Below, piece after piece: positions 3,718 to 30,768 of a stretch of DNA of 33,213 bases. The notes under the pieces were generated by a model. That model was not told where the DNA came from. It made no database searches and saw only the letters and a program-made list of their open reading frames with translations. Both the position numbers and the translations under genes were made by a program. Each line of letters begins with the position of its first letter. Position 1 is the first letter of the stretch. Source of the stretch: Jimgerdemannia flammicorona (taxonomy: Eukaryota). The DNA is taken from contig RBNJ01000320.1 of the NCBI GenBank assembly GCA_003990765.1, positions 1 to 33,213 of the forward strand, given 5' to 3'.

Positions 3718-5783
3718 AAGGGAAATTATATAGTTTCAGATACATCCTCTACTACTCTATATCCACTTTCTCCTATGCCCTATCCAGGTTATGCTCAGCA
3801 ATAGCTTCTGCTTCCTCAGTCCTCTTAGCCTCCAATTCAGCCAGGATTTCAGCTATCTCTCCATCTTCCTTTTCCTCAAACTCCTTGTGGTACTCCAAAC
3901 AAGCCTCCTGCCAGAGCTGCAGTCCATGCTACTTAGTCCAACAGTGGACAGCCTGCTCACCTGCCACAACTGCCAGAGTAGCTTCCCTCTCCTTATCTAT
4001 CTCATACCCCTCCTCCTCCAAGTATACTGCCAGAATTTCTGCCTTCAATGCTGCCACCACTCCATCGCCCTGCAGGATCCTTGCCCAATGCTCATCACTC
4101 ATCACTTGGAGGTCAACTTCCCCCAGCTCTTCTGCTGCCAAGTTATTCATCATCTGGCATACCCAGAGCAAGTTTCCCACCTCCTTCCCTTCTGGGGTCA
4201 CTGGCCTCCCTCTATCCAACATCATAGTATCAGTCCCTACACTCATCAACTCATTTCATCCCTCCTCTGAGACATCCACCAATTCCTCCTCTCCAGTTAC
4301 CTCTACCAATCCCCCCTTCTCCACATTTGGGACTCCAAAGTGCACCTGCTGAGCACCGTGCATCAGCACATCCTCCACCATCCTACCTCTCACCACCAGA
4401 CCCCTTCTGATAAAGGGGGAGGGTGAAGGTAAATCCTCCCAGGTTTCCTCCCAAACCTCTAGTGTGTCATCTTCATATGGATTCTTACTCAGCACCTTCT
4501 TGGCCTCCACCCGCCCCCCCTCCTCATTTCTTCCACTACTAGCAGCCCAGACACTTGCCTCAGTACCTCCAGTGGTTGCACTATTGCTTGCCTTCCTCAT
4601 CACCTTCACCCCCATTTTCGCCAACAATTCCCTCTGCCTTCTGCACCCTTAGGACCTCTCCCACACCTCCTTGTTGATGCGGACTCACTTCCCTCCAACC
4701 ACCTCAAGATGTGTCACCTCCTCGAATACCTTCCATACTTTCACCCTCCTCTCCACTGCTCTACTCAACTCCTCCAGTGCTTCCAGCAAATCCTTCTCCT
4801 CCTCCTTGCTCTCCTTTACTCTCATCATCTTATACAAGATAGCCCCCCACACCATTACTGAGGGCCAGTCCCGAGCCTTCCCAGTAGCCTCCCATCCAGC
4901 CAACTGAATCCTGATATCAACATCCCCTATCTGGAGGGAGGTTTCTTCCCACACTCTGAACCCAATATCGACTACCTCCCCATACTCGGCTATGAACTCC
5001 TCGACTCTCTTCCTCATCTCTACAGCAGTAACAGTGGGAACTCCTTTCACCAGAAGCTGCACTACTCTTGGGTCCCACTGCAGATATCTCACCATTGGTA
5101 TGCACACCTTGCTTACTTTCATCCCAGTCTTCAAAGCCTCCTCCAGTGGCCCAGCCTCCTCAAACCCCACCTCTACCCCTTCTAGGCCCTTCAGGAACTT
5201 AACAGATGCTGCACCACTCATCTGCTTCATGATCAGCCCCAGAACCATTTTTGCCATCACTGCCAAGTCCTGGAAATACATCATGACTGCAAATTCCAAG
5301 ATTGACTTCTTGAGTAATAGAGCCACCACCAGTCCCATTATACCATCTGCCAGGTCCCCAGGCCTCATGCCCTTCCCACTACTTAGCTCACCATCAGTAG
5401 TCCCATCTAGATTTTTTTTCCAGATTGCCTGTCACACCCCCATCAGTAGTCCCTGCCTCAGCTGCTACCCCTCCAGCACCACCCCTATGGCCCTCCAGAG
5501 AGGTACCCCCATGAGGTTGCTGCCTTGTAGCCCTCACTAGCACCTTCTCCCCCCTCAGCCAGCTCTCCAGTCCAGCTCTCTGCTGACCCCCCTTCACCTT
5601 CTCCACAAAGCTTACTCTGTCAGACCCTTGACCCCCAGCTCTGCCCCCTCCTCTACTGCATCCTCCCACCAGCAGGCCCCTCATACTTCCCCCCAAGTCA
5701 GGGCCTCTCCCCACTTGCTGCCATTCAAATGCTCCAGGGCCACCCTGCCCAGTATGCACCTCAGGATACTCATTGGTTGCCAT
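3710..5783 (-). pseudogene. LINE ORF1 (gag-like nucleic-acid-binding protein), decayed
   Basis: ORF pieces 4685-5368, 4256-4627 and 3929-4249 are in one frame, which continues to a TAG at 3710-3712 overlapping the ORF2 start region. The ATG at 5783 is in a shifted frame. The position upstream of ORF2 is typical; no specific motif was recognised. Confidence 0.7.
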
Positions 5784-5859
5784 GATACTAGTAGCTTGTC
5801 TCTGGAAACTGTATTGAAAGTGTTGCCAAAAGATTGTATAACCTGAATGTTGTTACTTC

Positions 5860-6239
5860 TTTTTCTTTGTCTTTTCTTAATATTCTACAATCTTTCAGTA
5901 CTTTCTGAACACTTAGAAATCCTTTCTTGGTGCTGAGCATCCACTAGTACTTATTTAGCTAATTACTGAATATCCTGAAAACTTATAGAACTTTATTTGT
6001 TATCATTTGTCATCCTTGCCAAGAACTTTCCTCTTGGCATTTTTCTTTGATTTCTCAGATCCTTCCAGATCCTTCTTTCAGATCTTGTATAAATATCCAC
6101 TTTGTTCTCATGAATAAAGTCTCAGAATATTTTCTCCCAGAAATCCTTTAAGAATACTCGAACCTTTAAATATCTCTTTGAGCTACTTTAGAACCACCAG
6201 AACTAGTTGCTTCCTCATTTAGAAACTAGAACCATTACA
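5860..6239 (+). repeat. 5'-truncated LTR (family E), interrupted by the LINE
   Basis: Aligns with 6726-7193, including TATAAAT..GAATAAAG and the shared end GAAACTAGAACCATTACA. The first ~60 bp are missing where the LINE 5' end sits. Confidence 0.8.
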
Positions 6240-6241
6240 AT

Positions 6242-6397
6242 CATATTGAGTATAAAGCTGAGAAAATCCTTAACAAATAAATCTGCTATCACTGTCCTGA
6301 ATACCTAGTCAAGTGGATGAGTTATCCTAAATATGATGCTACCTGGGAACTACTGGTCAATCTCAAGAACTCTTAAGATCTAGTTCAAGACTTTGAG
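6242..6397 (+). pseudogene. Chromodomain remnant of a chromovirus (Ty3/Gypsy) integrase
   Basis: Manual translation HIEYKAEKILNK*ICYHCPEYLVKWMSYPKYDATWELLVNLKNS*DLVQDFE matches the chromodomain consensus Y.VE.IL..R.....YLVKW.GY....TWEP..NL. It is followed by a PPT and an LTR. Confidence 0.88.
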
Positions 6398-6712
6398 GTA
6401 AAATGCATTGCTCAATCCCTGTAGTGACTTCCTTAGATTGTTAATGACCTATAGTAATGATCAGTATCTTATGTATTGGAAGTTTACTTTGGGACCCCAG
6501 AACCAGCAGAATATTTAATGAACAAGAAGTCCACCAAAATGAAGCTACTAGCTGGGTTTGAACCCCTTCTAGTTGATTAGTCTGGTAATAGACCCTCTGC
6601 CCTATATGAGGATGGCCAATCTCCACTAATATACTAATTCAAGTTTGAGAAATTTTGGTTAAGTATATCTAGTCTTATATTATCTAAGAACTCAATAAGG
6701 ATATTGGTTCTT

Positions 6713-7467: not shown

Positions 7468-7474
<7 letters not shown>

Positions 7475-7523
<49 letters not shown>
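7475..7523 (+). repeat. Poly(A) tract (49 nt), preceded by T8
   Basis: Read directly from the sequence. Confidence 0.95.
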
Positions 7524-7525
<2 letters not shown>

Positions 7526-8354
7526 AATAAAAACAAAATAACCTCTGACCTTCAAACTTATCTAAACCATCTCTCATAACATTTCAATGATCTGAATGTG
7601 ATGATTAGAAAGATTGTTATTTGGTTAAATAATGATAGAAAGAAGACTACTGAATACAAATATAAGATGAAGAAAAAAATGATCAAGAAAGTACTTGAGT
7701 AGTTTATCTTAGCCATTGTTCCTCAAGCTACCTCTACTATTATCTCTCAAGCTATCTCTGCCATTACCCCTCAAGCTGTCTCTGCTATTGCTTTTCAAGC
7801 TTTTACTCTAGTCTTGACTACTACTTTTATCTTAGTCCTGGCCTCAGCCCCAGTCCTGATCTCAGCTGTTCTGACTACTCCAGCCATCTTAGCTACTCTG
7901 GCCACCCTGGCTATAGCCACTCTGGTTGTCTCTGCTATCTCTTCAACTGTCTCTGCCTCTGCCTGCTCTGCTCCTACCTGTCCTGCCTCTATCTGTCCTA
8001 TCTGCCCTACTCCTGCTTATTCTGCTCCTGTCTGCTCTACCTCTATCTGCTCTATCACTTCAAAGTCAAGAGGTCATCCTCTTAAAGCTTGTTATATTTG
8101 TAATAGGTATGGTAAAATATATTGTACTATTCTCAAGATCTGCCAGTATCTTGATCTATCAATCTCTGATATTTTTTTAAGAAAAAGGCCATATAATAAC
8201 TTATGTTGAGTAGTGATTACTAGGACCAGGTATGCTGGCCTTAAATAGATTATTTGGAATAGAGATATAAATGAATACTAGTCTTAAATAGGTTATTTAA
8301 ATATGTATATATAGATTGATGATACAAAATTGATAATATATAATTTATATATCA

Positions 8355-8485: not shown

Positions 8486-8767
8486 ACTAAGATAAGATAA
8501 TAACTAGTTTTAGATCCTAAGGTAAGATATATAAAAGACTAGATATACTTATATAGTTTCAAATAACTTAAGATAGTAGAAGGATGCAGAGACTTGTTCT
8601 ATAATCTCAAAAAATCTAATAAACTTAGATTAAAATTTATTTAATAAGTAGTTGACTTGAGATTATATTTTGAGGTTCTCAGTAGATAAAAGAACTTAAT
8701 TACTAATAATATAGATGATATTATAGTATTTTTTATTAGTATACTTTATTTGATATTATTGAGTCTT

Positions 8768-10843
8768 TGTTAGAGGGTTGCTTTTTAGGGTAACTGTTAC
8801 ATAGTTCTGGAAGGGTTTTCTGGAAGTTCTAGATATTCTGGAAGACCATTTTCTTATGGTCAAGATCAATTTTGTATAGAGTACGTCCTCTACACTTATT
8901 GATTTCAAGATCAGGTTGATGTCTCAATCAAAGTCCTTTTTCGAACTAGTTCTAGATGTTCAGGATTTTCTGTATTTCAGGAAGTTCAAGAAACTAAGAC
9001 CAGCTTAGTTGAATTGGCATATTATTGCAGACAATACCCAATTAGGAAATTTTGTGATAGAGTTAGGAGTGGGGCCTAACAAGGAGTAGATTTACTTAAG
9101 AGTGGTTTGTATGTTATTAAAGAGGTTTATTTACTATTTATGATATTGCTATACTAGGAGTAGTTGTATAAAAGAATATTGTGGGGAAGTATTCAGGAAT
9201 GTTCTTATATGTTCAAGTCTGTTCAAGTCTGAGATTCTGAGGTCTGGGGGAGGGGGTATTTATACTAGTGAGGGGCTATCTGGACTATACTAGATATGAA
9301 TGTAGCACTAAGTACCTTGCTGAGTCAGAATGCAGTCATATAGTACAAGAGTGATCTGACATGTCAAGAGATCGTCTGACTGCTGAGTCAGTTCACAGTT
9401 ATGTCATATATATAAGGCTAATCTAACTATACTATAACTGCTAAGCTATTTATAGGTTTAGACACTGTCTGGGTAGTCTTCAATGATATCACTATCAATG
9501 ATATCATCTCTGATGAAGTAGTTATCTAGGAAAAGTAGTTTGCAGATTACTTCTCCTTGTTCACTGAGATAATAATATATTGGAACTTCATTACCATCCT
9601 ACAGAATAGTATCTTCTGTCTCATATACTGGATAAGGTATTGGTGGGTGGAGGAGAGGTACATTGTCTTTGCTTTTATCAGATTTGCTGTCTGCATACCT
9701 TCTGTAGATTACAGCACTATGAGTTATGGGATTATAGTAAGCTGGTGGCTGTGGTTCATATTACTCATACTTGGGTGGTGGAGTGGTTGGTTCAATCTCG
9801 AGGGTTATCTGGAGGTATAAGTTGTGTTCTCTGGTTTCTTCATTGTAGTTGAAGTAATCAGGGGTAAATGTGGGTTAGTATTCATACCAGTGGTCATTGT
9901 TTCAATAAGTCTCATATGCTGTTATGAATTGTTGTAAGTTCATCAGCAAGGTTGGTGGTATGATCAGGGTTGTCAGGGATTCTTGGCTTGAGGTCATATC
10001 GGTGTCAGAGAGATCATTGTCTTCTGCTTCATCTTCATTAAAGTGGATTATATCATAGACATCCTTTATGGCATATCTGACTTAGAGTATTTGCAGGATA
10101 TAATTGTTGGGGTGTGGGAAGATTCTGTCTGTGATTTCGATGTACTTGAGGTACTTGTGGTTGAGTTCTTGTATCATATTGTCAATTTGGCCATAGGACA
10201 GAGTAGCAATCATTTTGGCTATAGTAACTTAGAAGTAGAGAATAACAGTGCTATACTTATAGAAGAGTTCTCAGTATTTGCAGGCAATGAGTTTCTGGTG
10301 TTGAGACATCTGGATAATATCTGTATCATGGTAGTATTTGACCATGTCTTCTAGGAGACAACCGATCTGGTAGTAGCTTGAGATTTGTCCAATTTGGTGG
10401 GCCTTATTGAGTATATTTAGGGCATTCTATCGGGCTTCTACAAAATAGAGGAGTGCTAGGCTATGGATATTCATGAGGGGCAGAGGGGGAGTGGCTTGGT
10501 TGACAATGGCATTCCAAATGTCAGTGCAGATATGGGTGTAGATATCAGTGGTCATGTTTGTGTGTTTGGAAGTTGTAGTTGTTGTTTGTTTTGGTTCTCT
10601 GGTTTGATGTGTCTCAGTACTCAGTATATATGTATTTGGTCCTGATTGGTAAGATTCTGTTTATATGAATCTTGTATTCTGTAACTTCATGTTGACTCAG
10701 CTTTGTGCACTGTGACTTCAGTTTGACTCAGCTTTATGATCAAGCAGGTGATTTCCAGATTTGTTCAGAGGTTACATATGATTTCAGTGGCTTGTTCAGA
10801 GGGTGATATGTGATTTCGGTAGCTTGGAGGTTGTGCACTTACA
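8768..10843 (-). mobile_element. Solo LTR, family B (2,076 bp), with 5-bp TSD GTCTT
   Basis: Reverse complement of 14375-16437. Minus-strand termini TGTAAG...CTAACA. GTCTT lies at both 8763-8767 and 10844-10848. Confidence 0.93.
9458..10555 (-). pseudogene. LTR-encoded ORF of unknown function (solo-LTR copy, 1,098 nt)
   Basis: ATG at 10555 and TAA at 9458-9460, the same length and register as 14663-15760. It has sense codons (CAA, CAG, TGG, CAG) at four positions where the other copy has stops. Confidence 0.75.
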
Positions 10844-11430
10844 GTCTTCTAAAGATTTATAGTAGTAATTTTAAGTAGTTTATCTATTTTATCTATAAAG
10901 TTCTTAATGATGAGAACTTATATTTAATTGTTTTTCTAAAAGGAGATTAGACTTGTAGAGATCTCAAAATCTTAACTATAACATTAGGAAAAAAAAACTT
11001 CAGTTTATATTTATTAGTTTATATTTATAGCTATTTGAGTTTATATTATTTAATATAGTTTGAGTTTATAGTTATTTAGTTTATATTACTATATATTTCT
11101 ATCTATATATTTACTATTTAGTTTATATAGCTGTATCTTTAAGAAAATAAATCTATTAGTATCTACTAGATTATATCTATAGTTATTCAAGTTTGTATCA
11201 TAAAATTATAGTTTATATATTGTACTTTTCTATTTATATTCTTAGCAATTTAATTTATAAAATATACAGAAATTTAAGGGTTAATTCAGAACTAGTAAGT
11301 ATGACTACCCAGATAAGAAAAATAATAAACAAATAGTATTTATTATCAGAATAAATCTGCAACTCAACTGTTCTAATTTCTCAAATAATATTCTTAATAC
11401 TATTGATAAAATTCAGGTATTTATTGCTAT

Positions 11431-11918: not shown

Positions 11919-11997
11919 TAATTCAAGATGAATTCCTCACTTTCAAGCTGAACAATGAACAACTACAACAAGAACCCACACAACACAATCAGACAAA

Positions 11998-14066
11998 ATG
12001 GATATGAGACCACCAGTATTCCATGGATATACCTCAGATGAATCAATCATCACCTTCATTGATGATTTCGAGCAGTATGCTGCCATAAGGACCCTGACAG
12101 CAGCACAGCAAGTAGCCCTCATACCCTTCAGCCTACAAGGTCCTGCCAGAGCAGCATTCACAGCTGCAACCCATGCAGAAAATGATACTGATGCTATACT
12201 GACAGCACAGAAGACCTGACTCCGAAATACATACTATACAGATGAGATCAAGCAAGCTTTGAAGGATCAGCTCAACACAACATATCAAGGAATGAGTGAG
12301 GATCCAAACACATTCTATACCAGAATTTGATATCAGAGAATTCTTGCAGATTATGCTACTGCTATCCGAGATCAAGTAGCTGAAGCAACCTTTATAAAAG
12401 AAGTCCACCCAGAAATAGCTATGGCCATCCGCTCATCACCAGTAATTCTGGATCTGCCACAGAAGATCACCTATGCTCAGCAATACTAGAAGCCAGACAC
12501 CCACAAGACCATACAATGGAGAGAGTTATAGGAGTCATAATCGAGATACCTAAGTCAACCAGTGTGATCCCCACCACAATGATCAATCGAAACACACCTC
12601 AGCCCAAAGCTACAGAGTAGCAAAAGAACAGCAATCCTTTGGAGGAACTTACCAAAAGGTTTGCAGAAATGACTGCCCACTTGGGGGATGTAGTAAAGGA
12701 GATCAGAGGAAGAGACTACCACTCTATCCAGAAGTTTGCTGCCACCTCAGACAGAAAGAAAGGTACCTGCTATACTTGTAGAGAAGAAGGCCACTACTTC
12801 TATGAATATATGAGCAAAATCAAGTATAAGGCTCAACCAAGCAATGCTATATGAAACAAGGAGCAGGCCAATACAATTACCTTCAAGAAAATTAGAGATT
12901 CTGATGAAGAAGAATGAGAGCCCTATTCTGCTCAGACTACCAAGAAGGATGTTCGCAAGGAACCCTACAAGAGACCACCAGGAAGACCCAAGAAGAACCC
13001 AGTAAAAAAGTAGATAGAAATGGCCACTGAAAGCCAAGCTGAAGAGATGGACCAAGATATGGAGCTAGAGCAAGCAGTTCAAGATATTATCTGAGGAACT
13101 ACCCCAGCCAGCAAAGGAGAAAAAGAAAAGAAACTTTGCAAGACCAAGACTTTCAAGTATGATATCTTCAAGGACCTTAGCCAACAAAAGGTCAATGCAA
13201 CCTTTGGTCAGCTTGCAGAAATCCCAACATTCAGACAACAAATGAGGTTTGGACTCACCGAAACAACCAAGAAGCAAGGATGGAAGATAACTAAGGCCAA
13301 TAATGTTCAAGAGAACTCAGGAGAAGAAAGTGAAGACAATTGCAAAACCTCTGCCTATGCAATATGTCAAATCGAAGATAGAATCTTTGAAGTCATCATC
13401 AATACTAGAGCAGGAGGATGTCTTTTCAGCAAGAAAGCAGCAGACCACCTAGGTTGGGAGGTTGAAGAAGCAACCAAGTTGGTATTTATCACAGTAGATA
13501 GCACAAGAGCCACCCCTCTGGGAAAGATCTGAGATGTCCCCATTAAGATCGGAGGAGCAACCATCCCAGTAGATGTAATTGTAACTAATGCCACCAACTA
13601 TGACATCCTCATTGGCAATCAATGGCTTCACAAAGCCAGAGCAGTAATCAATCTCAATGCCCAGAAGATGCAAATCACCTACTGGGGACAGAAGATATGA
13701 ATTTCCATCAATGTCAACAAAGGAGTCTTGCCTGACATGGAGGAAGAAGAGAGCAAGCAGGAGGAAGCTTATATGGTAACTATTCCAAAGAGGAAAGTAG
13801 GATGGATGAGTGAAGAAGAATGGTGCAAGAAGATCGCAGAAGGCTATGCACCACAAGAAGTCTGTCCTCACAGGACCAAGATATACTGTATGGAGCATAT
13901 CAACGATTACTATCAGTACACCATCAGAATCAGAAAGATCCACCAGGAAAAAAGACAGAAAGCTCTTGAAAAACAAGTCAGAGAAAAGAAGGAGGAGGAA
14001 GATGATGAACTACCAGCCCTCCTGGAGGATAGTAATGATGAAGAAGAAATTAAGGTCAAGATCTGA
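11998..14066 (+). pseudogene. gag-protease of element A
   Basis: Gag start MDMRPPVFHGY..FIDDFEQYA..LQGPA; knuckle CYTCREEGHYFYE (~12768-12810); protease FEVIINTRAGG (decayed IDTGA) and YDILIGNQWL. Confidence 0.85.
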
Positions 14067-14069
14067 AGG

Positions 14070-14374
14070 ACCCACCCTGACACAGTCTTGCCAGAATACA
14101 AGTCGGAAAATGCAACTGAAATGGACATCGCCACAGTAGAAGAAGTCATACTAGAACCCCAGACAACCACCCTACTTACAACTGGACTGGAGATGACCAT
14201 CCCAAAGGATCATATTGGGATTCTCAAGACAAGAAGCAGTCTGGCCAGAAGCAAAATTACAATTGAAGGAGGAGTTATCAATTCTGACTATACTGGAGAA
14301 ATTCTGCTCATTGCTAGGAATCACAATTCTACAATCTCATTCCCAGTCAAGAAGAAGGACCAATTAGCACAGAT
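14070..14374 (+). pseudogene. Trimeric-type dUTPase domain of element A, cut in motif 4 by the LTR insertion
   Basis: ATEMDIA (motif 1), RSSLA (motif 2), GGVINSDYTGEI (motif 3) and KKDQLAQI (motif 4), followed by LTR sequence. Confidence 0.9.
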
Positions 14375-16437
14375 TATAAGCACACAACCTCCAAGCCACC
14401 GAAATTACATGTCACCCTCTGAACAAGCCACTGAAATCACATGCAACCTCTGAACAAATCTAGAAATCACCTGCTTGATTACGAAGCTGAGTCAAACCGA
14501 AGTTACAGCACACAAAGCTGAGTCAATATGAAGTCACAGAATACAAGATTTATACAAATGGAATCTTACCAATCAGGATCAAATGTATATATACTAAGCA
14601 CCAAAATACATCGAATCAGAGAACCAAAACAAACAACAACTACAACTTCCAAACACACAAACATGACTACCGAGATCTATACCTGTATCTGCACTGACAT
14701 TTGGAATGCCATTGTCAACTGAGCCACACCCCCCCTGCCCCTCATGAATATCCATAGCTTAGCACTCTTCTACTTCATAGAAGCCCGATAGAATGCTCTG
14801 AATATGCTTAGTGAGGCCCACCGAATCAGACAAATCTCAAGTTACTACTAGATCAGCCGCCTCCTGGAAGACATGGTTGAATACCACCATGATACAGACA
14901 TTACCCAGATATCTCAATACCAGAAGCTCATCACTCGCAAACATCAAGAACTCTTCTATAAGTATAGTACCATTATTCCTCGCCTCTGAGTTACTACCAG
15001 CAAAATGGTTGCTACCCTGTCCTATGGCCAAATTGATGATATGATACAAAAACTCAACCAGAAGTACCTTGAGTATGTTGAAACCACAGACAGAACCTTC
15101 CCACACCCCAATGATTATATCCTGCAAATGTCCCAAGTTAGATATACCATGAAGGATATCTATGATATAATCCACTTCGATGAAGATGAAGCAGAAGACA
15201 ATGATCCCTCTGATGCTGACATGACCTCTAGCCAAGGATCTCTACCAACCCTGATCACTCTGTCAACCTTGCCGATGAACTTACAACAGTTCATAACTGC
15301 ATACGAGACTTATTGGGACAATGACCACTAGCATGAATACCAACCCGCATTCACCCCTGATTACTTCAACTACAACGAAGAGACCAGAAAACACAACTTG
15401 TATCTTCAGACAACCCTCAAGATCGAACCAACCACTCCACCACCTGAGTACGAGCGACATGAACCATAGCTGCCAGCATACTATAACCCTGCAACTTACA
15501 GTACCATAACCTATAGAAGATATACAGACAGCAAATCCAATGAAAGCGAAGACAATATACCCATCCTTCATCCACCAACACCTTATCCAGCCTACGAGAC
15601 AGATGATGCTATCCTGTGGGACGGAGACAAAGTCCCAATGTATTACTACCTTAGCGAACAAGGAGAAGTAATCTACGAACCACTCTTTCTAGACGACTAC
15701 TTCATCAGAGATGATGTCATTAATGGTGATGTCATCGAGGACTACCCAGACAGTACCTAAACCCATAAATAGCCTAGCAGTCATAGTATAGTTAGATTAG
15801 CTTTGTATGATGTGACTGTGAACTGACTCAGCAGTCAGACGATCTCTTGATATGTCAGATCATACTTGTACTATGTGACTGCATTCTGACTCAGCAAGGT
15901 ACTAAGTGCTATATCCATATTCAGCATAGTCCAGATAGCCCCTCACTAGTATAAATACCCCCTCCTCCAGACCTCAGAATCTAAGACTCGAACACACAAG
16001 GACATTCCTGAATACTTCCCCACAATATCTCTTTACACAACTACTCTTAGTATAGCAATATCATGAATAGTGAATAAATCTATTCAAATAACCCACAAAC
16101 CACCCTTAAGTAAATCTGCTCTCTGTTAGGTCCTACTCCTAACCCCTTTACGAAATTTCCTAATTGGGTATTGTCTGCAACAATACGCCAATTCAACTAA
16201 GCTGGTCTTAGTTTCTTGAACTTCCTGAAATATGGAAAATCCTGAACATCCAGAACTAGTCCAAAAGAGAACTTAGGTTGAGACATTAATCTGATCTTGA
16301 AATCAATAAGTATAGAGGATGTACTCCATATGAAATTGATCTTGACCATAAGAAAACGGTCTTCCAGAACATCCAGAACTTCCAGAAAACCCTTCCAGAA
16401 CTATGTAATGGTTACCCTAAAAAGCAACCCTCTTACA
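14375..16437 (+). repeat. 5' LTR of element B (2,063 bp)
   Basis: Matches the solo LTR end to end. Start TATAAG (decayed TGTAAG), end CTTACA, followed by a PBS. TATAAATA at ~15950. Confidence 0.92.
14663..15760 (+). pseudogene. LTR-encoded ORF of unknown function (365 codons)
   Basis: One frame with no frameshift from ATG 14663 (MTTEIY..) to TAA 15760 (..EDYPDST). Six internal stops, all revertible by C>T or G>A. It includes the track ORF 15005-15331. Confidence 0.8.
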
Positions 16438-16439
16438 AC

Positions 16440-17683
16440 TTGGTAGCAGCAGTTTACAATCCAATTCCACTTCAAGACACTTCCTCACCCCACTACAAAC
16501 CCCTCTGCAAATTTCTACAAGTTGGTATAAAGCCCAACCTCTGAACTGGAATTTATCCTGAACTATCTGACAATCTAGAGAGAATTGAACCTAACATATA
16601 AGGACAATTTGACCTCCACACCTACAACAAGTAGAACAAACTTCATTCAAAGAAAGAAGTACTCAGGTTAAACCAGCAAATAGGCAAAACCCTATTCACC
16701 AAACTCCTTACACTACACCCAGTAAGTCAAGATGAAGAAGGTCTTATTGAAGCCTTCTTTACTCTTCTCAATAAGAGTTTTGTCAGCTCTACAACTCTGA
16801 GTGATCTAAGACAACCAGCAGCAGTCTTTCTAGCCTTAGTTCCTCATAAAGCCCAAGCCTCTATAGCCAAGTGGCTCAACTCTACCGATTTTCACTATAC
16901 CAGGACCAAGACCACATTATACTACCAATTCCAGAACAGCAAGGCCCACCATATTCTTAAAGAAGAAGTAAGAGAAACCCTTTACCAACTACCTGACCCT
17001 GAACCTGAAGCAGGCCCTGCTATAGCCCTACCTGAATCCGAAACCAATACCGAACTTGAACTTGACTTTGAATTAAGTCCCTCTGAAATCAGATATACAA
17101 CTGATTCTGTCTACTTCAATGCTGAGCAAACCTAATTACACGGGGACCAAACTGAAGAGGAGGAGAAGTATCTTACTGAATTCGATCCAGGATACACTAC
17201 CGAAGGAGACACACTCCCATCAGGACAGAATATACCTACACAACAACAAACAGCTATCTATCAAGCCCTTACTCCAGATCCACAACTACTACTTCAACAA
17301 CTTATACAGACCCAAAGAACTCCATCACACTCTGTACCAGTACCTCAAGTAGTACCAGTAACACCACTACCAGCAGTCCAACCACCTCTAGTAAACAACA
17401 TGGTGAACCAACAGATTCTTGACCTGACAGCCCAAGTAGCCATAATGGCAGCAACCATTACTACCTTAGCTGAACAGACCCGACCTACCAAAAATCTGAG
17501 CCTACCTACCTTTAATGGTACTGCACAAGAAGTCCAAAGCTTCATTAGTGTAGTTGATACCAACTTCGAAGCCAATCAATGGACCAATGAGCGAGTTGCT
17601 GACTGCGTTCTGACAAACAATCAAGACCATACTCTGGAACAACTCTTTGCTACCACTACAGCCTATGTCTGCTGAGTTGTTAC
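16440..17683 (+). pseudogene. Element B gag with a long N-terminal extension, truncated by the LINE fragment
   Basis: A single frame runs from the PBS to LSLPTFNGTAQEVQSFISVVDTNFEANQW (a gag-like PxFxG motif). The internal stops are CGA/CAA/CAG-type revertible. Confidence 0.7.
16441..16452 (+). promoter_or_regulatory. Primer-binding site of element B
   Basis: TGGTAGCAGCAG begins 3 nt after the LTR end. Confidence 0.7.
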
Positions 17684-18882
17684 TTTTTTTTTTTTTTTTT
17701 TTTTTTTTGTTTAATGAACTCTATGTCCCGCGGAATTTTATTGGAAGGGAACCTAGACTGTATAGGCCAAAACCCTCTCCCACCACCCACCAAGCACTGC
17801 CCCCCCATTAACCTAGGCTAGCTATTGTCCAGCAGCTCGACCATGCCAGGTGCAGCAGGGCAAAAAAAAGCCCGTACCTCATTCTGTGCACCATGCTCTC
17901 CCTACCACCAGGGGAAACCCAGCCATACACCAATGACCGAAAGCGCATGCCCGAGAACCCAACGTATATACAAGACCATGCCTGAGCTGAATAGAATAGC
18001 CCCTGCCACCCCAAAGAGAATGACAGGCAAAGAAAAAACCCTCATCAAAGTACAACACAGTGGGTAGGGCCTGGTTCTCCCAGTCGAGGTGAGTAAAGGA
18101 CTTACACATGAGGTGGGAGGAAACCCCCAATACCCCACTACTCAAGCCTGCAGGCCTCGATCACGTTGCCATATCAGCTCCCGGTTCTAGTTGAGTGCAG
18201 CCAAGATGCCTGAAATGGGTAGCCTCGGGCCCCCCGACCCCCCCTGACAACTGGGACCTCACCCCGCTACCCACCAAAAGAAGCTGAGAGTGACACCTAC
18301 CACCTAACCATGCTGCACCAATCAAAAGGCCCCACCAAAGCAGTACCTGCCCCAGCCCCGACGACCGCCCCCAGCCTGGCACCCTACTGGTCTACCGTTA
18401 TCGCCCTTCCTCCTATCTGTAATGGCCATCTCCCTCCCAACCCGACAACACCTGAAAAGCAGTCACCTATGCCAGAACCGTGCTCGCCAGGAAGCTCGCC
18501 AAAGCCAGAGGGCCCCACCACAGGCACCGAAGACCTGCAGGTAACCTACACTGGGCACTTGACACCCAAGGTCAGCTGACTTTCTACATAGCCCGAGATA
18601 TACCGAGACAACACCTTGTTGGTGATGGCAAAAGGAAGAAGGTGCCGCACCAAAATGGGTACACCCCAGATGCAGCTGAAGGCACCAGAATCTGCGAAAA
18701 AGTGGAGGAAGCACTGATCCGACACTGATAAAGGGGCAACTCATCACCATTGCCCTCCTCCCACCATATCCCTACAGGCACAGCAAATCAACCCGAGGTA
18801 GAGGGGGTAATATTAGGGAAAAGGGGACTCAGAAGATCACCTATCAAACCTTGTGACCAGTAAGGTAGTGGAGAAAGGAGCT
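17684..18882 (-). mobile_element. 5'-truncated non-LTR retroelement (LINE 3' end) with poly(A) tail
   Basis: T25 at 17684-17708 is a minus-strand poly(A). The minus strand is G-rich, like the LINE at 1-5855. LPPLFRRFWCLQLH and LWLWRASWRARF resemble LINE ORF2 C-terminal motifs. No TSD was found. Confidence 0.6.
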
Positions 18883-19454
18883 GTTGTCTGCATTCCCAGA
18901 GAACCTACACCACCCAAGTTATTATTCCCAGAAGAGCCTGATTTATGCCATCTGAGTTATTCATCATTCTCAGTGAGCCAAATCAAGTTATCTGCCAAAT
19001 TATCAAAATGTTCTGTATAAGGAACCTGCTATACTACATAGAGATCATCATGCAGAAATCACAAGAGGAGAACTGCTAAATTTCCAGACTATCACATATA
19101 TAAGGAGATTGTTGCACTATATAGAAATCACCTGCCATCCAAGAAGGAGAACCACTAAATTGCCAGACTGTTATACACAAGATCACTATGCTATATATAA
19201 ATTTCTACCAATTCCCAGTTGAGCCAAGAAGGAAATCCATTTATATACAAATTGCCACTACATCTAGAGAACCATCTCAATAAGGAAATTGCTTGCAGAT
19301 ATCCAGCTTTAACTATTATACCACTAAACACCAATAAGGATCTCAGGAATCTTAAAACATTTTGTTACTTTTTGACAAAGTAACTGGGGGCTCAAGCCAA
19401 ACTATATCAATCCCCAACCTTATAATTAGCCTCCATTGAGCCAGACACATTACA
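18883..19454 (+). repeat. 5' LTR of element C (3' 572 bp only)
   Basis: Aligns with ~27826-28351 and ends GAGCCAGACACATTACA. Confidence 0.9.
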
Positions 19455-19456
19455 TC

Positions 19457-19474
19457 TGGGGGCTCAACTGGGAA
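19457..19474 (+). promoter_or_regulatory. Primer-binding site of element C, tRNA-Pro-like
   Basis: TGGGGGCTCAACTGGGAA resembles the tRNA-Pro PBS TGGGGGCTCGTCCGGGAT used by MLV. Confidence 0.75.
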
Positions 19475-20010
19475 ATATTTCAAATAAATGTGACTTTTCA
19501 GCTCACAAGAACCTATAGTCAAACTGAATATATTTGATATAACACCAATCTCTGCTACTATAGGAGAACCAGTCATCACTAGCATTTGGACAGGAAGAGA
19601 AGTAATCACATTAAGACTTGCCAACTATCCAGCATCAGAAGGATCTCAATCAGAAGCAGGAGATAGTACAGTCTGAAATCCCCAACCAGATCAACCAGAT
19701 AATACAGGTGGCCCTGTTGGAGATTTTGAAGAACTTGCACAAGAACTAGAAGATCTTATTATATGCCTGAGATCTTATAGCCAGACACCCCATATCAGTC
19801 CCACCAGTCTCACCAATAGAACCTTTACCACAACCTCTTGCAGAGTTAGAAGCAGCTCCTATAAGGATACCTAGGCTCATTCCACTTTATCTAAGGTCCA
19901 GAATACCATCTTCAAGATACCCAAGCACCCCCACCTCCAGTAACAACTCAGGAAGCAAATCAGAATCAGAATCTGAATCAGAACCAGAATCAGAAGAAAG
20001 TGATGATGAA

Positions 20011-21890
20011 ATGGCCACCTCATTACCAATCTTTGCAGGATACCTAGAGGAAGACCCCAGAGAATTCCTTGATGGAAATTAAGAAATTACAGCTCTAAGG
20101 AATCTCTCAGATGAAAGAAAAATCACCATCTACAAGGCTCAGCTCAGAGAACCAGCTAGAGGAATTTTCTATCAAACAGCAGATAATCCAGATTCAGAAT
20201 TGGTGAGACAGATACAAGCAGCAATGTCTTATAAGCTAGAATATGTGGCCATGGTCCACTAGCTCATTGAAAAGTATGCAGGAAATGAAACCTGTCACAA
20301 GGCTCAAGAATCCATCATGGGGATGAAGATGAATCTTGGAGAATCACCCAGAGCCTTCTTCACAAGAATTCAGAAGAGAATGCATGCTGCCAGGTTCAAT
20401 GCCACCAACCAGGACATCATAGGTCCAATGACTTTCATGAATGGAATTCCTCCAAACATTGCCTAGCATGTCTGTACTCTAGGCATCAGAAGGTCTGAAG
20501 AGCAAGTAGATGCAGCCCAAGGATTCTTTGATATTAGACAAGGAACTACCTGGAGTGATCATGATAAGAAAGAAGATAAAGAAGACATCTTGGTCAAAGC
20601 TCTACAAGGACTCTTTCAAGGACAAGAAAGATCTAAAGAAAGAAGGCCAGCCAAGGAAGGAAAGAAGGACAGAAGCAAAATCCAAGACCTCATCTCCAAG
20701 TTGGACTGATTGGTTAGACAGATTAAAAAACTCACTACATACGAAAATCAGAGTTACCAAGACAATAGAGGATACCCACTACAGAGAAGCCCAGATTATC
20801 CACTAAGAGATAACAGGAATTACCAGCAAGAAGAAAGAAGGTACCATCTAAGATAGAGCCCAAGTCCAATGCTTCCACTGTGGACAATTCAGAAATATGC
20901 CACTGAATGTGACAACAAAAGAAATGACCAAAGAGACTCAGAACCACCAAACTGAAGGAATGACACTCAGTACAAGAAGACTGAAGCCCATCCTGTTGAA
21001 GATTTCGAGAAAGCAAGCAACAGTGAAGACTACAGTAACCTAGACTTATACCCTACCAAGGTTACCACTCAAAAAACAGTCTACCCAGCAGAGAAAAGGA
21101 AGAGACCTGTAGGAAGGCCATCCAGGAACATCAGCAGAAGAATTATCCAAGAAGAGGATGAAGAACATGAAGAGGAGCAGGTAGAAACACCTCCCTGAAC
21201 CCCCTCACCTTTTGTCCCTGAGACAAATGAGTTGCCACTAGAAGATGAAGAAATGGAACAAGAAGAATGGGAACCTGCTGCTCCAAAGCCCAAGAAGAAG
21301 TACACCCTGAAGACCATGCCTAGAGATATCTACAACAAAGCCTGGCAGAAGATTCAAGAGGCCAAGATGGAAGTCCCCCTCCTGCAGTTCCTGCAACTGA
21401 CACCAGCTGGAATCTGAAACAAATTGCTGAGAACCACCAGGTCTAGCACTGGCCAAGTTCCTATCTCACAGCAAGAACCAGCTTCCATTCCTATTCAGGT
21501 TGCAGAAAAACATGTCAGCACCTACTTATATGGAGATATTGGAGGACAAAAGGTGAAGATCCTCATAGACATAGGAGCAGCTATCTGTATCATTGCCAAA
21601 CAGTTCCTGGACACCCTCCAATAGCCCATTGATAGACTATCTAACCTCAGCATCATAGTGGCAGATGGAGCCCAAACTCAACCCCTTGGAGAAGTATGAA
21701 ATATTACCATCTCTCTTGGATACATTCAGTTCTCTATCCCAAAAGCTATTGTCACTGAAGCTGTCACCTATGACATAATTCTTGGTATCAACTGGATGAA
21801 GAAAATGAATGCAGTTGTTAACATTGGTCAACAGGTACTCAAGTTTGACTACTGAGACAAGAAGTATAGAGTTAAGGTGACCAGCTATGA
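20011..21890 (+). pseudogene. gag-protease of element C
   Basis: MATSLPIFAGY.EEDPREFLD start; knuckle CFHCGQF (~20870); protease ILIDIGAAIC (~21560) and YDIILGINWM. Colinear with element D. Confidence 0.9.
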
Positions 21891-23180
21891 GTAATTGAAG
21901 AAGAAAAAGAAAGTCACTATTCAGGAGGAATATGCCAGCAGCGAAGAATCTATCACAGAAGAAGAGGAAGAATCTGAAGATGGAAATGATTCCCAACTTA
22001 ATCCCCGAATTAACCTGGTGGATGACAGACCAGAAGACAATGTGTGGGCCAAGAATACCATCTCTATCACCATTGGAGCTATTGCAGGAGAAATCAAAGA
22101 ATGCCCTATTTACCTCAAGAGACACAAGTGTCTCAAGCATTCCTCCAAGACTATGAGAATAAGAAAATCGCCTGGTACAGCCTGCCCAGAGTACAGAAGG
22201 AAGAAGAAGAAATGCAGACATGTTCCAGAAATACCTGCAACTGAAGCTGCAGAAGTGCAAGCAATTTGGAGACAAGAATCATCTGAGGAAGAAGAAGTTC
22301 CTGACCAAGAAGTTTCTGAACAAGAAGTACCTAAAAAGGAAGAAGTCCCTGAGCTCATTCCCTGGGATAACCCTCACTGGACACCACCTGAAGATAATGA
22401 CCCTTGGAATATAGAAGAAGGACCCAGTACAATCACTATTATCCCCAAGAAAGAAACTTATCAAGAAAAAGCTTTTCAGCTAGGAAGATGTCCACACCAA
22501 TGGTCTTCCACTCTCCCTGAGACTACTGCTATCAGTATCATCTATTGGACCAACAAGAAAGACAGAGACCCCAGAGACTGGAACCCCCAACTACACTTAT
22601 ACAGTTAACCACCTTTCAAGAAGTTACCACAAAGCTACAAAGTCGATTTAGAGGACAAGGCTTCTTCACCTAAACAGAAATATACCCCTTATCTATCCTT
22701 CCCCCAACTTATGATCAAGATGGGTACTGATTTCTGAGACAACAGGAGATAAACAGCCAGAAATATCATTTCCAAGCAATGGGATATTGCAACTATAGAA
22801 GATACCCTAACTGCCAAGTCTGCAAACATCAGAAGATTCACCTTAGTCATAATATTGCAGTCCATACTTTAAAGAGAGGAGACAACAGAGGTCAGATCTG
22901 AAAAAGCTAAATCAAGAAGCCAGGAAGAAGAATCCTCAAGATCTACGATTTGAGAGAAGACATCCTAGCTCTTATCAGACATGCAACCTGTCAAGAATGG
23001 GTAAAAGATGCTACCAACTTCATGGAAGCCCTAGACCCTACAGGAAGAAGAGAAATTAATTATCTCTGAGACCCCTCTACTGGTGCCAGATGGCCACACC
23101 TCAACCTTAGAGCTTGGAGGCTCTCTGCTAGTAGAGCTTCAGCCTTAGGAAAGCCTGAACTTAGTAAGGATATTGCCCAG

Positions 23181-23582
23181 TATGCCCTCCTACATCCTAA
23201 GGCTAAACCCCTGACCAAAGCCCACCCTGAGGATATAGGATATGATCTTTATAGTCTGAAGGATGAATCTATCAAGCCTGGAAAAACCTTCATGATCAGA
23301 ACTGGATTAGTCATGCAGCCACCCCAAGGAGCTTACATCTGATTGACCTCAAGGTCTGGACTTGCCAGACAAGAAATAACTGTAGAAGGAGGAACTATTA
23401 ACCCAGGATATGCAGGCAAAATCAAGGTTATCCTATATAATAGCAGTGCAGAATGGTACTGAATCATTAGAGGACAGAAGATTGCCCAAGCAGTCTTCAT
23501 GAAGATCAGGACCCTACAATCACAAGAAGTATCTGAACTGACTGAAGGAACAAGGTAAGTCAAAGAATTTGGAAGTTCAGAC
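23181..23582 (+). pseudogene. dUTPase domain of element C (all five motifs)
   Basis: Manual translation LHPKAKPLTKAHPEDIGYDLYS..TGL..TSRSGLA..EGGTINPGYAGKIKVILYN..GQKIAQAVF..TR*VKEFGSS. Not in the ORF track because of stops. Confidence 0.92.
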
Positions 23583-24004
23583 AAGAAGGAAGTATATCTC
23601 CTTCAAGTCAACCACCTCAAGAGGAATGCTCCCCAACAAGTATACCAACAACCAGTCAGACTGCACAAGAATCTCATCTTGGGGCCCAGAGAACAAGCTA
23701 CTTTTGAAATCTTTGTACCACTCAACCCCAGAAACCTTTTATTTGAACCCAAGGAAGATATCACATACCTGGATATAGAGGGACACACATTCTCTGATAA
23801 GATGAATCCAGTATACTCCCAAGCAACCAACCAAAGTTGAGAGACCATCATCTTGCTGAAAGGAACCATCATAGGACATCTGGTGTCTTTTCTCAACCAA
23901 ACTTATAGGGAAGTTTATGAACTAAACCTATCAGGAAATGGCAAAAGATTCCAGAAGAAAGGAAAGGCCCCTCTGTGACTCAGGAGACAGTGAAGCCTTT
24001 CACT

Positions 24005-25405
24005 AATATTGGAGAAGAATTGACACCCCAACAATAGCAACAACTAGTAGAACTTCTCAACAAATATCAAGATATCTTCACTACTGATTATGGCAACCTG
24101 CCATACAACCCATCATATCACCACAGCATAAATACAGGAAATGTAACACCCATCTGGCAGAAACCCTATAGAATACCCCATCACTTGAAAATATTTGAAA
24201 AAGAGCACATTTAAGAACTCTTAGATAATGGAGTTATCTGACCCTCTACCAGCCCTTGGGCCAGCCCTATACTTATTGTACCAAAGAAAGAAGGATGGAG
24301 ACTTTGTGTGGACTACAGGAAACTCAATTCAGTCACTGAAAAAGATGTCTATCCTTTGCCCAGAATTGATGATCTTTTGGACCAGTTACAAGATGCCAGA
24401 TAGTTCAGTAGTATGGACTTCTTTACAGGATTTCATGAAATCCCCATGGACTCCAAAGACATTCAAAAGACAGCCTTCCTTGCCCTAGGAAAACTGTTTG
24501 AATACCTCTGAATGCCCTTTGGACTTTGCAATACACCCCCCACCTTCAAGAGGATGATGAATTCAGTCTATACCCCTTTGATCTACCACTGCCTGATTGT
24601 ATATATGGACAATTCCAACATCTATTCAGCAAATTTTGAAGAACACCTGCACTACCTAGAGGAATTCTTCAAGCTCACCTACAAGAACTATTTGAGATTG
24701 AATGCAAAGAAATGCTACTTTGGGAAACAGAAACTTGAATTCCTGGGATTCATAGTTTCAAAAGAAGGAATCCATACAGACCCAAAGAAAACTGAGAAGA
24801 TCAACAATTGGTCAGTACCTAAGACCCCAAAGGAAATACTATCATTCCTGATGCTAGTATCCTATTACAGAAGGTTTATCAAGGACTTTGCCCAAATTGC
24901 TGCCCCAATCTGAATTTTTCTCAAGAAAGGAGTACTATTCAAATGGACAGAATCACAAGAAAAAGCCTTTAAAGAACTCAAGAACCACATGACTATAGCA
25001 CCAATTATTATATACCCCAATCTACAAAAGTCATTCATCCTGTATACAGATGCTTCCAAAGATGGCCTAGGAGCAGTTCTAGCCCAAGAAGGACTCGATC
25101 AATAGCACTATGTAATAGCTTATGCAAGCAGAGCTACCAATCAGCAGCAGATGAACTATGGTAGCACCAAACTGAAATGTCTTGCAGTCATATGAGCGGT
25201 CACCCTGTTCAAGCATTACCTTATTGGAAAAAGATTCATCCTGATTATAGATCATGCAGCCCTCAAATGGCTATTCAACCATAAAGAACCCATCAGAATT
25301 CTAGCCTGATGGATCCTTATCCTTCAGGATTATAAAATTACCATCATCCACAAAGCAGGGAAAGCCCACAACAATATTGATGTACTTTCTCACCAGCCCC
25401 AATGA
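24005..25405 (+). pseudogene. Reverse transcriptase + RNase H of element C
   Basis: [45 protein letters not shown] (YMDD decayed), FLGFIVS; RNase H LYTDAS..GLGAVL, DHAALKWL, GKAHNN.DVLS. Confidence 0.95.
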
Positions 25406-26460
25406 ACCAGAAGAAGGGTGTCCTGAGGAACTACACTCTAAAGGAAGCTCCTCAGACCATTAAGACACAAGAAGTTCTCATCTGAAAAGAACATCAGAAA
25501 GCCCACCAAGAACAGGTGAATGTAGAAGAGAAGTTGTGAACAACATACCAACATTGGCCCAACCTTAGAACATAAGTCTGGGATATACTCAAGAAATGTG
25601 ATACCTGCCAGAAGTACCAAGGAAGAAAGAACTATCAAGCATTACTACAACCAATCATACCACCAGACAATATCTTTCAGAGATAGAGAATAGATGTAAT
25701 TGGACCTCTACCAGTTATATCAAGAAGAAACAAATACATCCTTATATTTGTAGAACATCTGACCAAGTGGCCTGAGGCTTTCTCAATGGAAATTACAGAT
25801 GCCCTAACTATTGTAGACCTTCTCCATAGACTCACACTCAGATATGGACCCCCAGAAGAACTCATCTCTGATCAAGATACAGAATTCATCAATAATATAA
25901 TCACAAGTTATGCTTGAATTCACAAGATCTATCTCAAATAGACCACATCATACTATCTCCAGACCAATGGTATGACAGAAAGGATGAACCAGACCATCAA
26001 GAAAGGACTTGCCCAAGTCAATTATACCAATTGGAACCTCTGCTTACCTGAGATCCTATGGGAAATTCAGAACACCCCTGCCACCTCTATCAAATAAAAG
26101 CCATTCAAAATGATGTTTGCTAAGAAAATGAGAACTACTGACTATAAGAACCTTGGAGATCTCCTCAAGAAGGCAGAACAGTTATATAATCAGGCTCGAG
26201 TTCAGATTACCAAAGTCCAAGAAAGACAAAAGAAGTACTATGACCAGAAACAGAAGGATTAGAAGATCAAGATTGGTGATCAAGTACTAGTTTGGAGAAG
26301 CATGATTGAAACAAACTTTGCTGCCAAACTGGAGCCCAAATAGAAAGGATCTTACCTTGTATATAACATCAGAGGAACCAGTATCTATTTAAGAAGTATG
26401 GATGGACAAACCCTGAGAATACCAGTATATATCAATTGCCTCAAACTATATCTTCCCTCT
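25402..26460 (+). pseudogene. Integrase of element C
   Basis: HHCC (EHQKAH..CDTCQK), IDVIGPLP, LTKWPEA, LISDQ, QTNGMTERMNQT and the GPY/F-like region KLEPK*KGSY. The 3' end is approximate. Confidence 0.92.
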
Positions 26461-26981
26461 ATACCACGAGCCAAAGAATTGATTAGCACCTCTAGAAATT
26501 GGTCCTCAGCTCCTTCCAGGCCCTACCAGTTCCTCTACCTCAATTTGGCCAAGCTAATGGAAACCTCCTTCAGAGGATTCAAGTTTACCAAGAAAATCTT
26601 ACCTTGGCCAGATGCCTACTACAAGTCCACCAACTGCAGGTCTATTATGTAATTGGTGAACAATTACAGAACCTTCTATCCCCAGAGCAGACCTACATCA
26701 GAAATACCACAGATCTGATCAGAAGAGACACTATCACTGCAGACAGATTATATACCATTTACAAATGAAATGTTACTGCTCTGATACAGGCACAGTTCTC
26801 TCTGAATAATATTCAAGGAATGAACCCTATTGCCTATTTGAGCATCATCAATTCTATTGAAATTCTATTCCCTGAAGAAGAAGAAGAGCCTATAGAATAG
26901 AGTGACCCTAGTATAGACAATGAAGATGATGGAACAGGTATAGATGTAGAAGCAGCTTATGCTTATTGAGATGATGACTAA
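26448..26981 (+). pseudogene. Extra ORF between integrase and PPT (env position), unknown function
   Basis: One frame extends track ORF 26499-26768 through revertible stops to TAA 26981 and has an acidic C-terminus. The start codon is uncertain. Confidence 0.65.
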
Positions 26982-27008
26982 AGAATAGTCTGAGACAGAC
27001 TATCCTTC

Positions 27009-30766: not shown

Positions 30767-30768
30767 TT

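Follow-up and report, generated by a model that had tools for sequence, protein, structure and literature searches.

A reading frame within a long terminal repeat

Two copies of a repeat of about 2.06 kb, lying in opposite orientation and 85.6% identical in pairwise alignment, are present in a 33,213-nucleotide stretch (positions 1 to 33,213) of contig RBNJ01000320.1 of Jimgerdemannia flammicorona (GenBank assembly GCA_003990765.1; the whole of this stretch is referred to below as the window). The repeat, designated LTR 'B', is a retrotransposon's long terminal repeat (LTR), and each copy encloses an open reading frame (ORF) of 1,098 nt, which is the subject of this report. The features on which the argument turns are as follows:

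14375-16437, + strand: 5' LTR 'B' copy of a truncated element; 2,063 bp, TATAAG...CTTACA, ends read directly and from alignment to the solo copy
8768-10843, - strand: solo LTR 'B' copy; 2,076 bp, ends TGTAAG...TAACA in its own orientation
16441-16452, + strand: primer-binding-site (PBS)-like TGGTAGCAGCAG; AC and then the motif, 3 nt past the LTR end, read directly
14663-15760, + strand: LTR-borne ORF, copy A; 365 codons and a TAA (1,098 nt, ATG to TAA), pseudogene with 6 internal stops
9458-10555, - strand: LTR-borne ORF, copy B; 1,098 nt, ATG to TAA, pseudogene with 8 internal stops

The copy at 8768-10843 is flanked by AAGAC on both sides (10844-10848 and 8763-8767; GTCTT on the + strand), which makes it a solo LTR bounded by a 5-bp target-site duplication (TSD). 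The copy at 14375-16437 is a 5' LTR followed by the PBS-like motif. The ends of LTR 'B' are of the TG..CA type with a 6-bp inverted repeat, the TG of the 5' copy having mutated to TA; TGTAAGCGCAC is the start of the LTR in one contig of X14, a public sequencing run treated below. An earlier note on this DNA, drawn up from the letters alone, had delimited the LTR by the TG..CA ends and GTCTT duplication of the solo copy and by a PBS at 16441, and these limits hold with slight corrections from the reading of the ends. A tRNA scan found no tRNA genes in the window, and no tRNA was matched to the PBS-like motif.

The two copies align without a gap over 14371-15808. The three indels that separate them (4, 10 and 1 nt) all lie 3' of the ORF, within 630 nt downstream of it, and none falls across the ORF itself. 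As the earlier note had it, each copy holds a single frame that runs from ATG to TAA over the same 1,098 nt, and the frame thus survives in the solo LTR as well. Internal stops are found in copy A at codons 20, 43, 63, 109, 223 and 269 (14720, 14789, 14849, 14987, 15329 and 15467) and in copy B at codons 43, 95, 109, 158, 218, 227, 265 and 319. Exactly as previously counted, four of the six stops of copy A are sense codons in copy B (TGA/CAA, TAG/CAG, TAG/TGG and TAG/CAG), and those at codons 43 and 109 are common to both copies. Three further in-frame stops, again common to both copies, lie between the LTR start and the ATG, and a reading of the ORF as the continuation of pol from the LTR start is rejected on their account.

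The openness of this frame was compared with that of 5,000 dinucleotide-preserving shuffles per copy, stops being counted in the best of the three frames with the terminal stop included. For neither copy was any of the 5,000 shuffles as open as the ORF: 7 and 9 stops were observed, against shuffle means of 19.5 and 21.8 and minima of 9 and 10, and the remaining forward frames hold 15/22 and 34/36 stops. The open frame is not due to chance.

Homologues and signs of selection on the frame

Relatives of the product were sought through a word index of 5.8 billion proteins and with a HMMER profile over 1.84 billion cluster representatives. The profile search recovered exactly two, the metagenomic proteins P0003 and P0004, and searches limited to near-length and to shorter proteins returned the same two and nothing further. 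Two scans of metagenome contigs confirmed no relatives, and protein scans of viral and genome contig sets found none; a conserved 28-nt word of the LTR was likewise absent from these sets.

P0004 is a 128-residue 'hypothetical protein' from a 1,180-bp JGI/IMG contig, which matches codons 1-128 at 80% identity without a stop and shares the start MTTEIY with the LTR ORF. P0003, which has 247 residues and comes from an ENA contig of 998 bp, spans codons 115-365 with 63% identity and 82% positives, also without a stop, and its two gaps relative to the LTR ORF are both in frame, of two codons each. The frame is thus open in 128/128 codons of the one and 247/247 of the other. The two stops that the window copies have in common, earlier held to be revertible, are indeed sense codons in P0004 (W and R), and each of the 12 internal stop positions of the two copies is occupied by a sense codon in one or more of the other sequences. 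Identity between P0001 (the window copy) and P0003 varies by block, from 43% in the acidic linker (176-205) to as much as 77% in 206-250; such uneven conservation along the chain is what one would expect of a protein.

The differences between the two window copies also follow the codon frame. The 186 differences are spread over codon positions 1/2/3 as 65/31/90, and the 14 transversions among them as 2/1/11. In frame 0, 76 of the 172 transitions are synonymous where 33% would be expected (p=0.0013), as are 8 of the 14 transversions where 14% would be (p=0.0002), with no synonymous excess in frames 1 and 2 (p >=0.79). The transversions, earlier suggested as the place to look for selection, therefore carry this excess in the one frame alone. 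By the Nei-Gojobori method (NG86), the ratio of nonsynonymous to synonymous divergence (dN/dS) is 0.22 in the ORF frame; the two remaining forward frames give 0.71 and 1.00, and the three reverse frames 0.49, 0.31 and 1.39. The expectation that indels would preserve the frame is borne out to the extent that the ORF has none between the copies and that 2/2 gaps of P0003 are whole codons; two contrary cases among other copies, an 85-nt skip and a +1/-1 pair, are taken up below.

These figures bear on the suggestion that the open frame reflects a gene on the opposite strand, aligned codon by codon with the present one, or base composition with no gene at all. The codon-aligned antisense frame has only 6 and 9 stops in the two copies and contains ORFs of 134 and 135 codons. 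An antisense gene is nevertheless at odds with the pattern of differences, which peaks at sense position 3 (90) and not at position 1 (65), and with the 2/1/11 distribution of transversions; its dN/dS is 0.49 as compared to 0.22 in the sense frame, and both database homologues are sense-frame proteins. Composition, for its part, did not yield the openness of the ORF in any of the 5,000 shuffles. We consider this the least probable of the explanations entertained here.

Other copies of LTR 'B' in public sequencing runs

Words of the LTR are present in 15 listed runs from 9 studies, mostly soil metagenomes (share 0.20 or less); none of these runs is recorded as RNA. For four of them (X1, X2, X11 and X14), 3431, 422, 332 and 273 contig pieces were placed on 14000-16900 at 80% likeness, and depth in what follows is a sum over contigs at that likeness, and not a copy number. 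The summed depth jumps at the LTR start (~14388): it is 136 before and 911 after the step in X1, and 16 and 76 in X2. Loose contig ends gather at 14374, where the interrupted element continues, at 14377, where LTR copies run into unlike left flanks (agreement 0.62), and at 16437. The other copies therefore have the same LTR limits, with the ORF inside them. A boundary that leaves the ORF outside the LTR, the case that had been named as counting against an LTR-borne gene, was not seen among the copies in these four runs.

The decay of copy A can also be read against these copies. At 14849, the T of the codon-63 stop, C accounts for 647 of the 708 summed depth in X1 and for all of the depth in X2, X11 and X14. 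Among the indels listed for 14000-16900 (12 of 17), two are in the ORF, which makes up 38% of the compared stretch, and these two constitute a +1/-1 pair in a single contig.

The same data bear on whether the LTR has been wrongly delimited or is chimeric, the ORF belonging to something inserted into, or joined with, a shorter genuine LTR and hence lying outside the part that replicates. Summed depth in X1 is uneven, at 178 to 1488 in the ORF as against 1500 to 2950 downstream, and the 3' LTR of the LTR 'B' family is absent from the window, both of which such an arrangement would accommodate. These depths, however, are contig sums at 80% likeness rather than copy numbers, and two independent insertions have the same two ends, the solo copy with a clean 5-bp TSD. 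Moreover, other copies diverge at the same ends, and no internal TSD or terminal repeat brackets the ORF. A chimeric or misplaced LTR is accordingly very improbable.

A separate observation concerns the 3' part of the LTR. In X11 and X14, two small runs from one organism that are RNA by guess only, summed depth is 120-4560 over 16037-16424, the presumed R-U5, as against 0-36 over the presumed U3 upstream of 15940, and it falls again directly past the LTR end. The limits of the stretch are thus the region immediately 3' of the TATA box described below and the PBS. This extent could be that of a minus-strand strong-stop product or of a short R-U5 RNA; equally, it could mark a segment common to LTR 'B' and a more abundant family.

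The predicted protein

No Pfam-A family was detected in P0001-P0004, and a profile search of the PDB gave no matches at E <=1. The ESM Atlas yielded no usable feature match; its structure rows all have template-modelling (TM) scores <=0.30, and its model of P0003 has a predicted local distance difference test (pLDDT) score of 0.39. AlphaFold2 reached a pLDDT of 31 with the entire chain and of 52 with the N-terminal 128 residues, which it modelled as five helices. Foldseek found nothing in the PDB at E <=0.001 for this N-terminal model, and its weaker matches, all generic helical bundles (best E 1.2, TM <=0.32), were rejected as meaningless. The search for a family or structure proposed in the earlier note thus matched no family, fold or solved structure.

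The composition of the remainder is distinctive: residues 146-365 contain 43 D+E as against 11 K+R, along with 23 Tyr and 22 Pro. The N-terminal stretch of about 140 residues is predicted to be helical, at low confidence, and the remaining 220 or so to be unstructured. Of the earlier picture of a helical half followed by an acidic one, the acidic, Tyr/Pro-rich remainder stands, and the helical part shrinks to a low-confidence N-terminal third. A transmembrane or hydrophobic segment was not found in P0001-P0004 (maximal 19-residue Kyte-Doolittle means of 0.6 to 1.1). PPxY-type motifs of the window copy (PPEY, LPAY) were considered and dropped, being absent from P0003.

Candidate control signals of the LTR

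Candidate control elements lie on both sides of the ORF:

14392-14474, + strand: tandem repeat, 32-nt unit x2.7 (Tandem Repeats Finder)
14484-14546, + strand: tandem repeat, 31-nt unit x2 (Tandem Repeats Finder)
14569-14573, + strand: CCAAT, in both copies
14587-14593, + strand: ATATATA, in both copies, 76 nt 5' of the ATG
15824-15957, + strand: second promoter-like module; TGACTCA at 15824 and 15887, TATAAATA at 15950-15957
16073-16078, + strand: AATAAA, kept in the solo copy at 9131

The second repeat block contains TGAGTCA at 14488 and 14519, both kept in the solo copy; this heptamer we take to be an AP-1/Gcn4-type site. Eight of the ten TGAGTCA matches in the window fall in the two LTR copies. 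The repeats at 14392-14546 may serve as an enhancer, and over 14623-14667, the 45 nt around the ATG, the two copies are identical. Taken together, these features give the LTR's first 290 nt the look of a promoter module belonging to the ORF itself. The second module contains the heptamer on the other strand (TGACTCA) 125 and 64 nt before TATAAATA, and all four heptamers, together with TATAAATA, are retained in the solo copy. This module is presumably the promoter of the genomic RNA of the element, which would place the U3/R border some 25-40 nt downstream, and the AATAAA at 16073-16078 presumably acts as a polyadenylation signal near the R/U5 border. Since the ORF ends upstream of TATAAATA, by 190 nt, it would lie in U3 if TATAAATA drives the element RNA. 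The position upstream of a TATA box (~15950), from which the earlier note had concluded that the frame is in U3, is seen in the sequence, with the assignment to U3 itself depending on motifs.

The presence of such signals is pertinent to the view that the ORF is a passenger, i.e. a fragment of a host gene that was transduced into the LTR and spread with it while being of no use to the element, the open frames elsewhere then representing the host gene or young copies. The product does resemble no retroelement protein, P0003 and P0004 are known without genomic context, and plant and animal LTR elements are described as capturing extra ORFs (PMC5408684). Set against this are the start codon, conserved leader and promoter-like motifs that accompany the ORF within the LTR, the identical start of P0004, the synonymous excess between the two LTR-borne copies themselves, and the profile search, which turned up no third relative, so that no host gene family is visible. 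We judge a passenger improbable, if less so than a misplaced LTR boundary.

A probable accessory gene carried by the LTR

Because of its open homologues, the frame-specific synonymous excess, the in-frame gaps and the reproducible LTR limits, we regard 14663-15760 as a real, formerly protein-coding gene situated wholly inside an independently delimited LTR; in this the central claim of the earlier note is upheld by P0003 and P0004 together with those same three lines of evidence. Our interpretation, to which we attach a probability of roughly 0.7, is that LTR 'B' carries an element-borne accessory gene of 365 codons upstream of the TATA box, that the copies in the window are dead, and that the lineage kept the frame open under purifying selection. 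Each of the rival explanations given above is less likely than this one. The earlier reading of the locus thus stands as regards an LTR-borne gene that is also found in the solo LTR and lies upstream of the TATA box; the C-to-T and G-to-A decay fits CpG deamination and not repeat-induced point mutation (RIP), as discussed in the last section.

A number of observations weigh against this interpretation: 1) Only two homologues were found in ~15 billion predicted proteins and, as protein databases contain only open frames, two open homologues are an ascertained sample. 2) P0003 and P0004 are known as proteins alone, and they need not lie in LTRs. 3) P0003 begins at the equivalent of codon 115; the portion before it may be disrupted or may lie beyond the end of its contig. 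4) When transitions are normalised to G/C content, their rates by codon position are 0.31/0.24/0.38 (p=0.028), a weak effect, and for this reason the two window copies owe the greater part of their divergence to neutral decay after insertion. 5) The 292 nt upstream of the ORF are equally free of indels, so that their lack is not specific to the ORF. 6) Among the other copies, one contig has the +1/-1 pair at 14764/14768, four bases apart, and another case is a contig that skips 85 nt of the ORF (15270 to 15356). 7) The codon-aligned antisense frame is, as noted, fairly open. 8) The motifs of the presumed promoters are short, and the count of TGAGTCA over the window (10 as against 7.6 expected) is not above chance. 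9) The structure models are of low confidence, with even the helical N-terminus weak. 10) Neither a 3' LTR nor a polypurine-tract junction of the LTR 'B' family lies within the window. 11) The gene is known here from sequence alone.

If the gene is of the kind proposed, its placement in the LTR would have it copied to both ends of each new insertion and left behind in solo LTRs. With a promoter of its own in the first 290 nt (the repeats with two TGAGTCA, CCAAT and the TATA-like box) and the AATAAA of the LTR, it could form a self-contained unit of ~1.45 kb. Expression from this promoter is the version that we prefer, at about even odds. A tentative alternative, clearly behind it, is expression from the 3' LTR part of the element RNA by way of a subgenomic message, on the analogy of the sag gene that mouse mammary tumor virus (MMTV) carries.

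The protein most likely acts in trans on its element family. As to how, the leading guess, a doubtful one suggested by the composition of the acidic, aromatic-rich tail, is that it might be a transcriptional activator of LTR promoters; the role of transactivator or anti-silencing factor put forward in the earlier note draws what support it has from the same tail. A still more speculative proposal, which we consider unlikely, would make every LTR a complete and independently expressed gene with enhancer repeats, CCAAT/TATA, the 365-codon ORF and a poly(A) signal of its own. Solo LTRs would then yield a trans-acting regulator of the family (an activator or a brake on copy number), its gene dosage following the number of LTRs and not that of elements, as a retrotransposon counterpart to the LTR-borne regulators of retroviruses. 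The gene would have come to lie in the LTR through a shift of the plus-strand priming site to a place upstream of what was formerly an internal 3' accessory ORF.

Relationship to known arrangements

The LTRs of retrotransposons are treated as non-coding control regions, and solo LTRs, often much more numerous than complete elements, are credited with no more than promoter or enhancer activity. Accessory and regulatory genes that reach into U3 from the 3' end are represented by nef of human and simian immunodeficiency viruses (HIV/SIV), bel/bet of foamy viruses and pX of human T-lymphotropic virus (HTLV); these start in the internal region and overlap U3 only, and some of them activate transcription from the LTR. 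The ORF described here differs from them in lying wholly inside the LTR, and its product belongs to no Pfam family. In the literature searched, whose coverage is incomplete (few subscription journals), no description was found of a protein-coding frame lying completely within a retrotransposon LTR, which is weak evidence of absence, and the arrangement is otherwise known mainly from a few retroviruses.

A close parallel is MMTV sag, the ORF for the superantigen, which lies in that virus's 3' LTR (PMC2191060, PMC2191119) and whose product is described as a type II membrane protein (PMC2191119). Both are ORFs of several hundred codons inside a retroelement LTR, which they render unusually long, and both would be accessory genes that are not needed for reverse transcription itself. 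In contrast to MMTV, a vertebrate retrovirus, the owner of LTR 'B' is a retrotransposon with no env in sight; its LTR ORF has promoter-like signals of its own directly upstream, and the product, unlike Sag, has no hydrophobic segment (maximal Kyte-Doolittle value 1.1) and no Pfam match.

Extra ORFs of other retrotransposons include brtn, an antisense gene of the Boty-like elements of Botrytis (PMC8365987), ORF0 of the rice elements Retrosat2, RIRE3 and RIRE8, which lies upstream of gag-pol (PMC3485330), and the 'add. ORF' of fungal Gypsy elements (PMC2864245). As far as the accessible text of these reports goes, they share with the LTR ORF the character of lineage-restricted extra ORFs that evolve faster than pol and lack homologues outside the family; going by the same text, they differ from it in occupying the internal region, where they are neither duplicated at both ends nor left in solo LTRs. 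The Cassandra elements, which are terminal-repeat retrotransposons in miniature (TRIM), are described as having a 5S rRNA-like gene in their LTRs (10.1101/2023.07.14.548913, PMC10886601), and thus offer a gene-like unit with its own promoter in the LTR and hence in every LTR copy, a property that LTR 'B' would share if its putative promoter is functional. The Cassandra unit, as these sources present it, is a Pol III small-RNA module of ~120 nt in plants, whereas the LTR ORF is a protein frame of 1.1 kb with Pol II-type motifs.

If the interpretation is true, several consequences follow. Annotation pipelines that mask LTRs throw out real genes. A factor encoded by an element can vary in dosage with LTR number, solo copies being counted in. 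Finally, the LTR-borne accessory genes of retroviruses have a retrotransposon counterpart, and with it a system for asking how such genes enter U3.

Decay and genomic context

Most of the substitutions between copies A and B are C/T and G/A transitions, in a region strongly depleted of CpG. The observed/expected ratio of CpG is 0.13 to 0.37 in the LTR copies and 0.02-0.5 across the window, accompanied by an excess of TpG/CpA. TpA/ApT is 0.88 and 0.95 in the LTR copies and (CpA+TpG)/(ApC+GpT) is 1.21, whereas RIP would make the first index high and the second low; these indices do not indicate RIP, no RIP signature was seen window-wide, and RIP was rejected as the cause of decay. Given the CpG depletion and these index values, the decay fits deamination of CpG rather than RIP.

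The remaining features that concern the owner of LTR 'B' (element B) and the neighbouring LTR-like repeats are:

16635-17672, + strand: internal ORF of element B; 346 codons, one stop, gag-like by eye only
18883-19455, 27151-28352 and 29416-30768: LTR-like repeats of the dUTPase element family

The 5' LTR copy is inserted in the dUTPase domain of a + strand Gypsy-type element, of which gag, protease (PR) and dUTPase occupy ~12.0-14.37 kb, and the interrupted dUTPase Pfam match ends at profile position 103/129. What is left of the internal part of element B amounts to ~1.2 kb (16441 to ~17672) and ends at a poly-T tract at 17676-17703. Searches of Pfam and among longer proteins gave nothing for this part, tblastx detected no similarity between it and the Gypsy elements nearby, and the Ty3/Gypsy label of the earlier note was not confirmed for element B. 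The gag-PR-dUTPase-reverse transcriptase (RT)-RNaseH-integrase (IN) series at ~19.9-26.5 kb (pol at 21.5-26 kb) was considered as belonging to element B and rejected, as it is part of a different family with its own LTRs. The LTR-like repeats of this downstream family end at 19455, 28352 and 30768, two of them being followed by TGGGGGCTCAAC.

The window as a whole consists of nested transposon sequence over its 33 kb, with no host gene detected and no Rfam families found in it. Three Gypsy-type elements, of two families and with dUTPase between protease and RT, occupy 11950-14374, 19456-27150 and 30769-33213, and the order PR-dUTPase-RT has been described for fungal Gypsy elements (PMC2864245). 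A natural RT ORF of the window led to RT clusters of the ESM Atlas for which the few taxa on record, 2-3 members only, were Streptophyta, too slight a pointer to decide the host. The two dUTPase families are alike at the protein level only, with 29-38% identity in aligned segments. For one dUTPase element the presumed 5' and 3' LTRs can be aligned along no more than 573 bp, at 80%, and the portion of the 5' copy further upstream has no counterpart. A piece of 87 nt is present three times, at 19369, 28266 and 30682. Rearrangement or recombination is suggested by these findings.

Long poly-T and poly-A tracts are found at 17676-17703 and 7473-7530, the first being followed by 1.2 kb of G+C-rich (53%) sequence. 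AT-rich, heavily decayed DNA beside the solo LTR contains a chromodomain match (E 2e-8) at 6250-6400 (+) and, at ~8500-8650 (-), a match to a Tf2-type SH3 domain that is weak and falls short of the family cut-off (E 5e-4); both are remnants of further chromovirus-type elements. The minus strand of 1-6000 harbors a non-LTR element resembling long interspersed nuclear elements (LINE-like), with an RT (RVT_1, E 1e-23) and a weak endonuclease match, and this segment has a G+C content of ~50%, an extreme GC skew of -0.37 to -0.52 and a CpG observed/expected ratio of 0.09.

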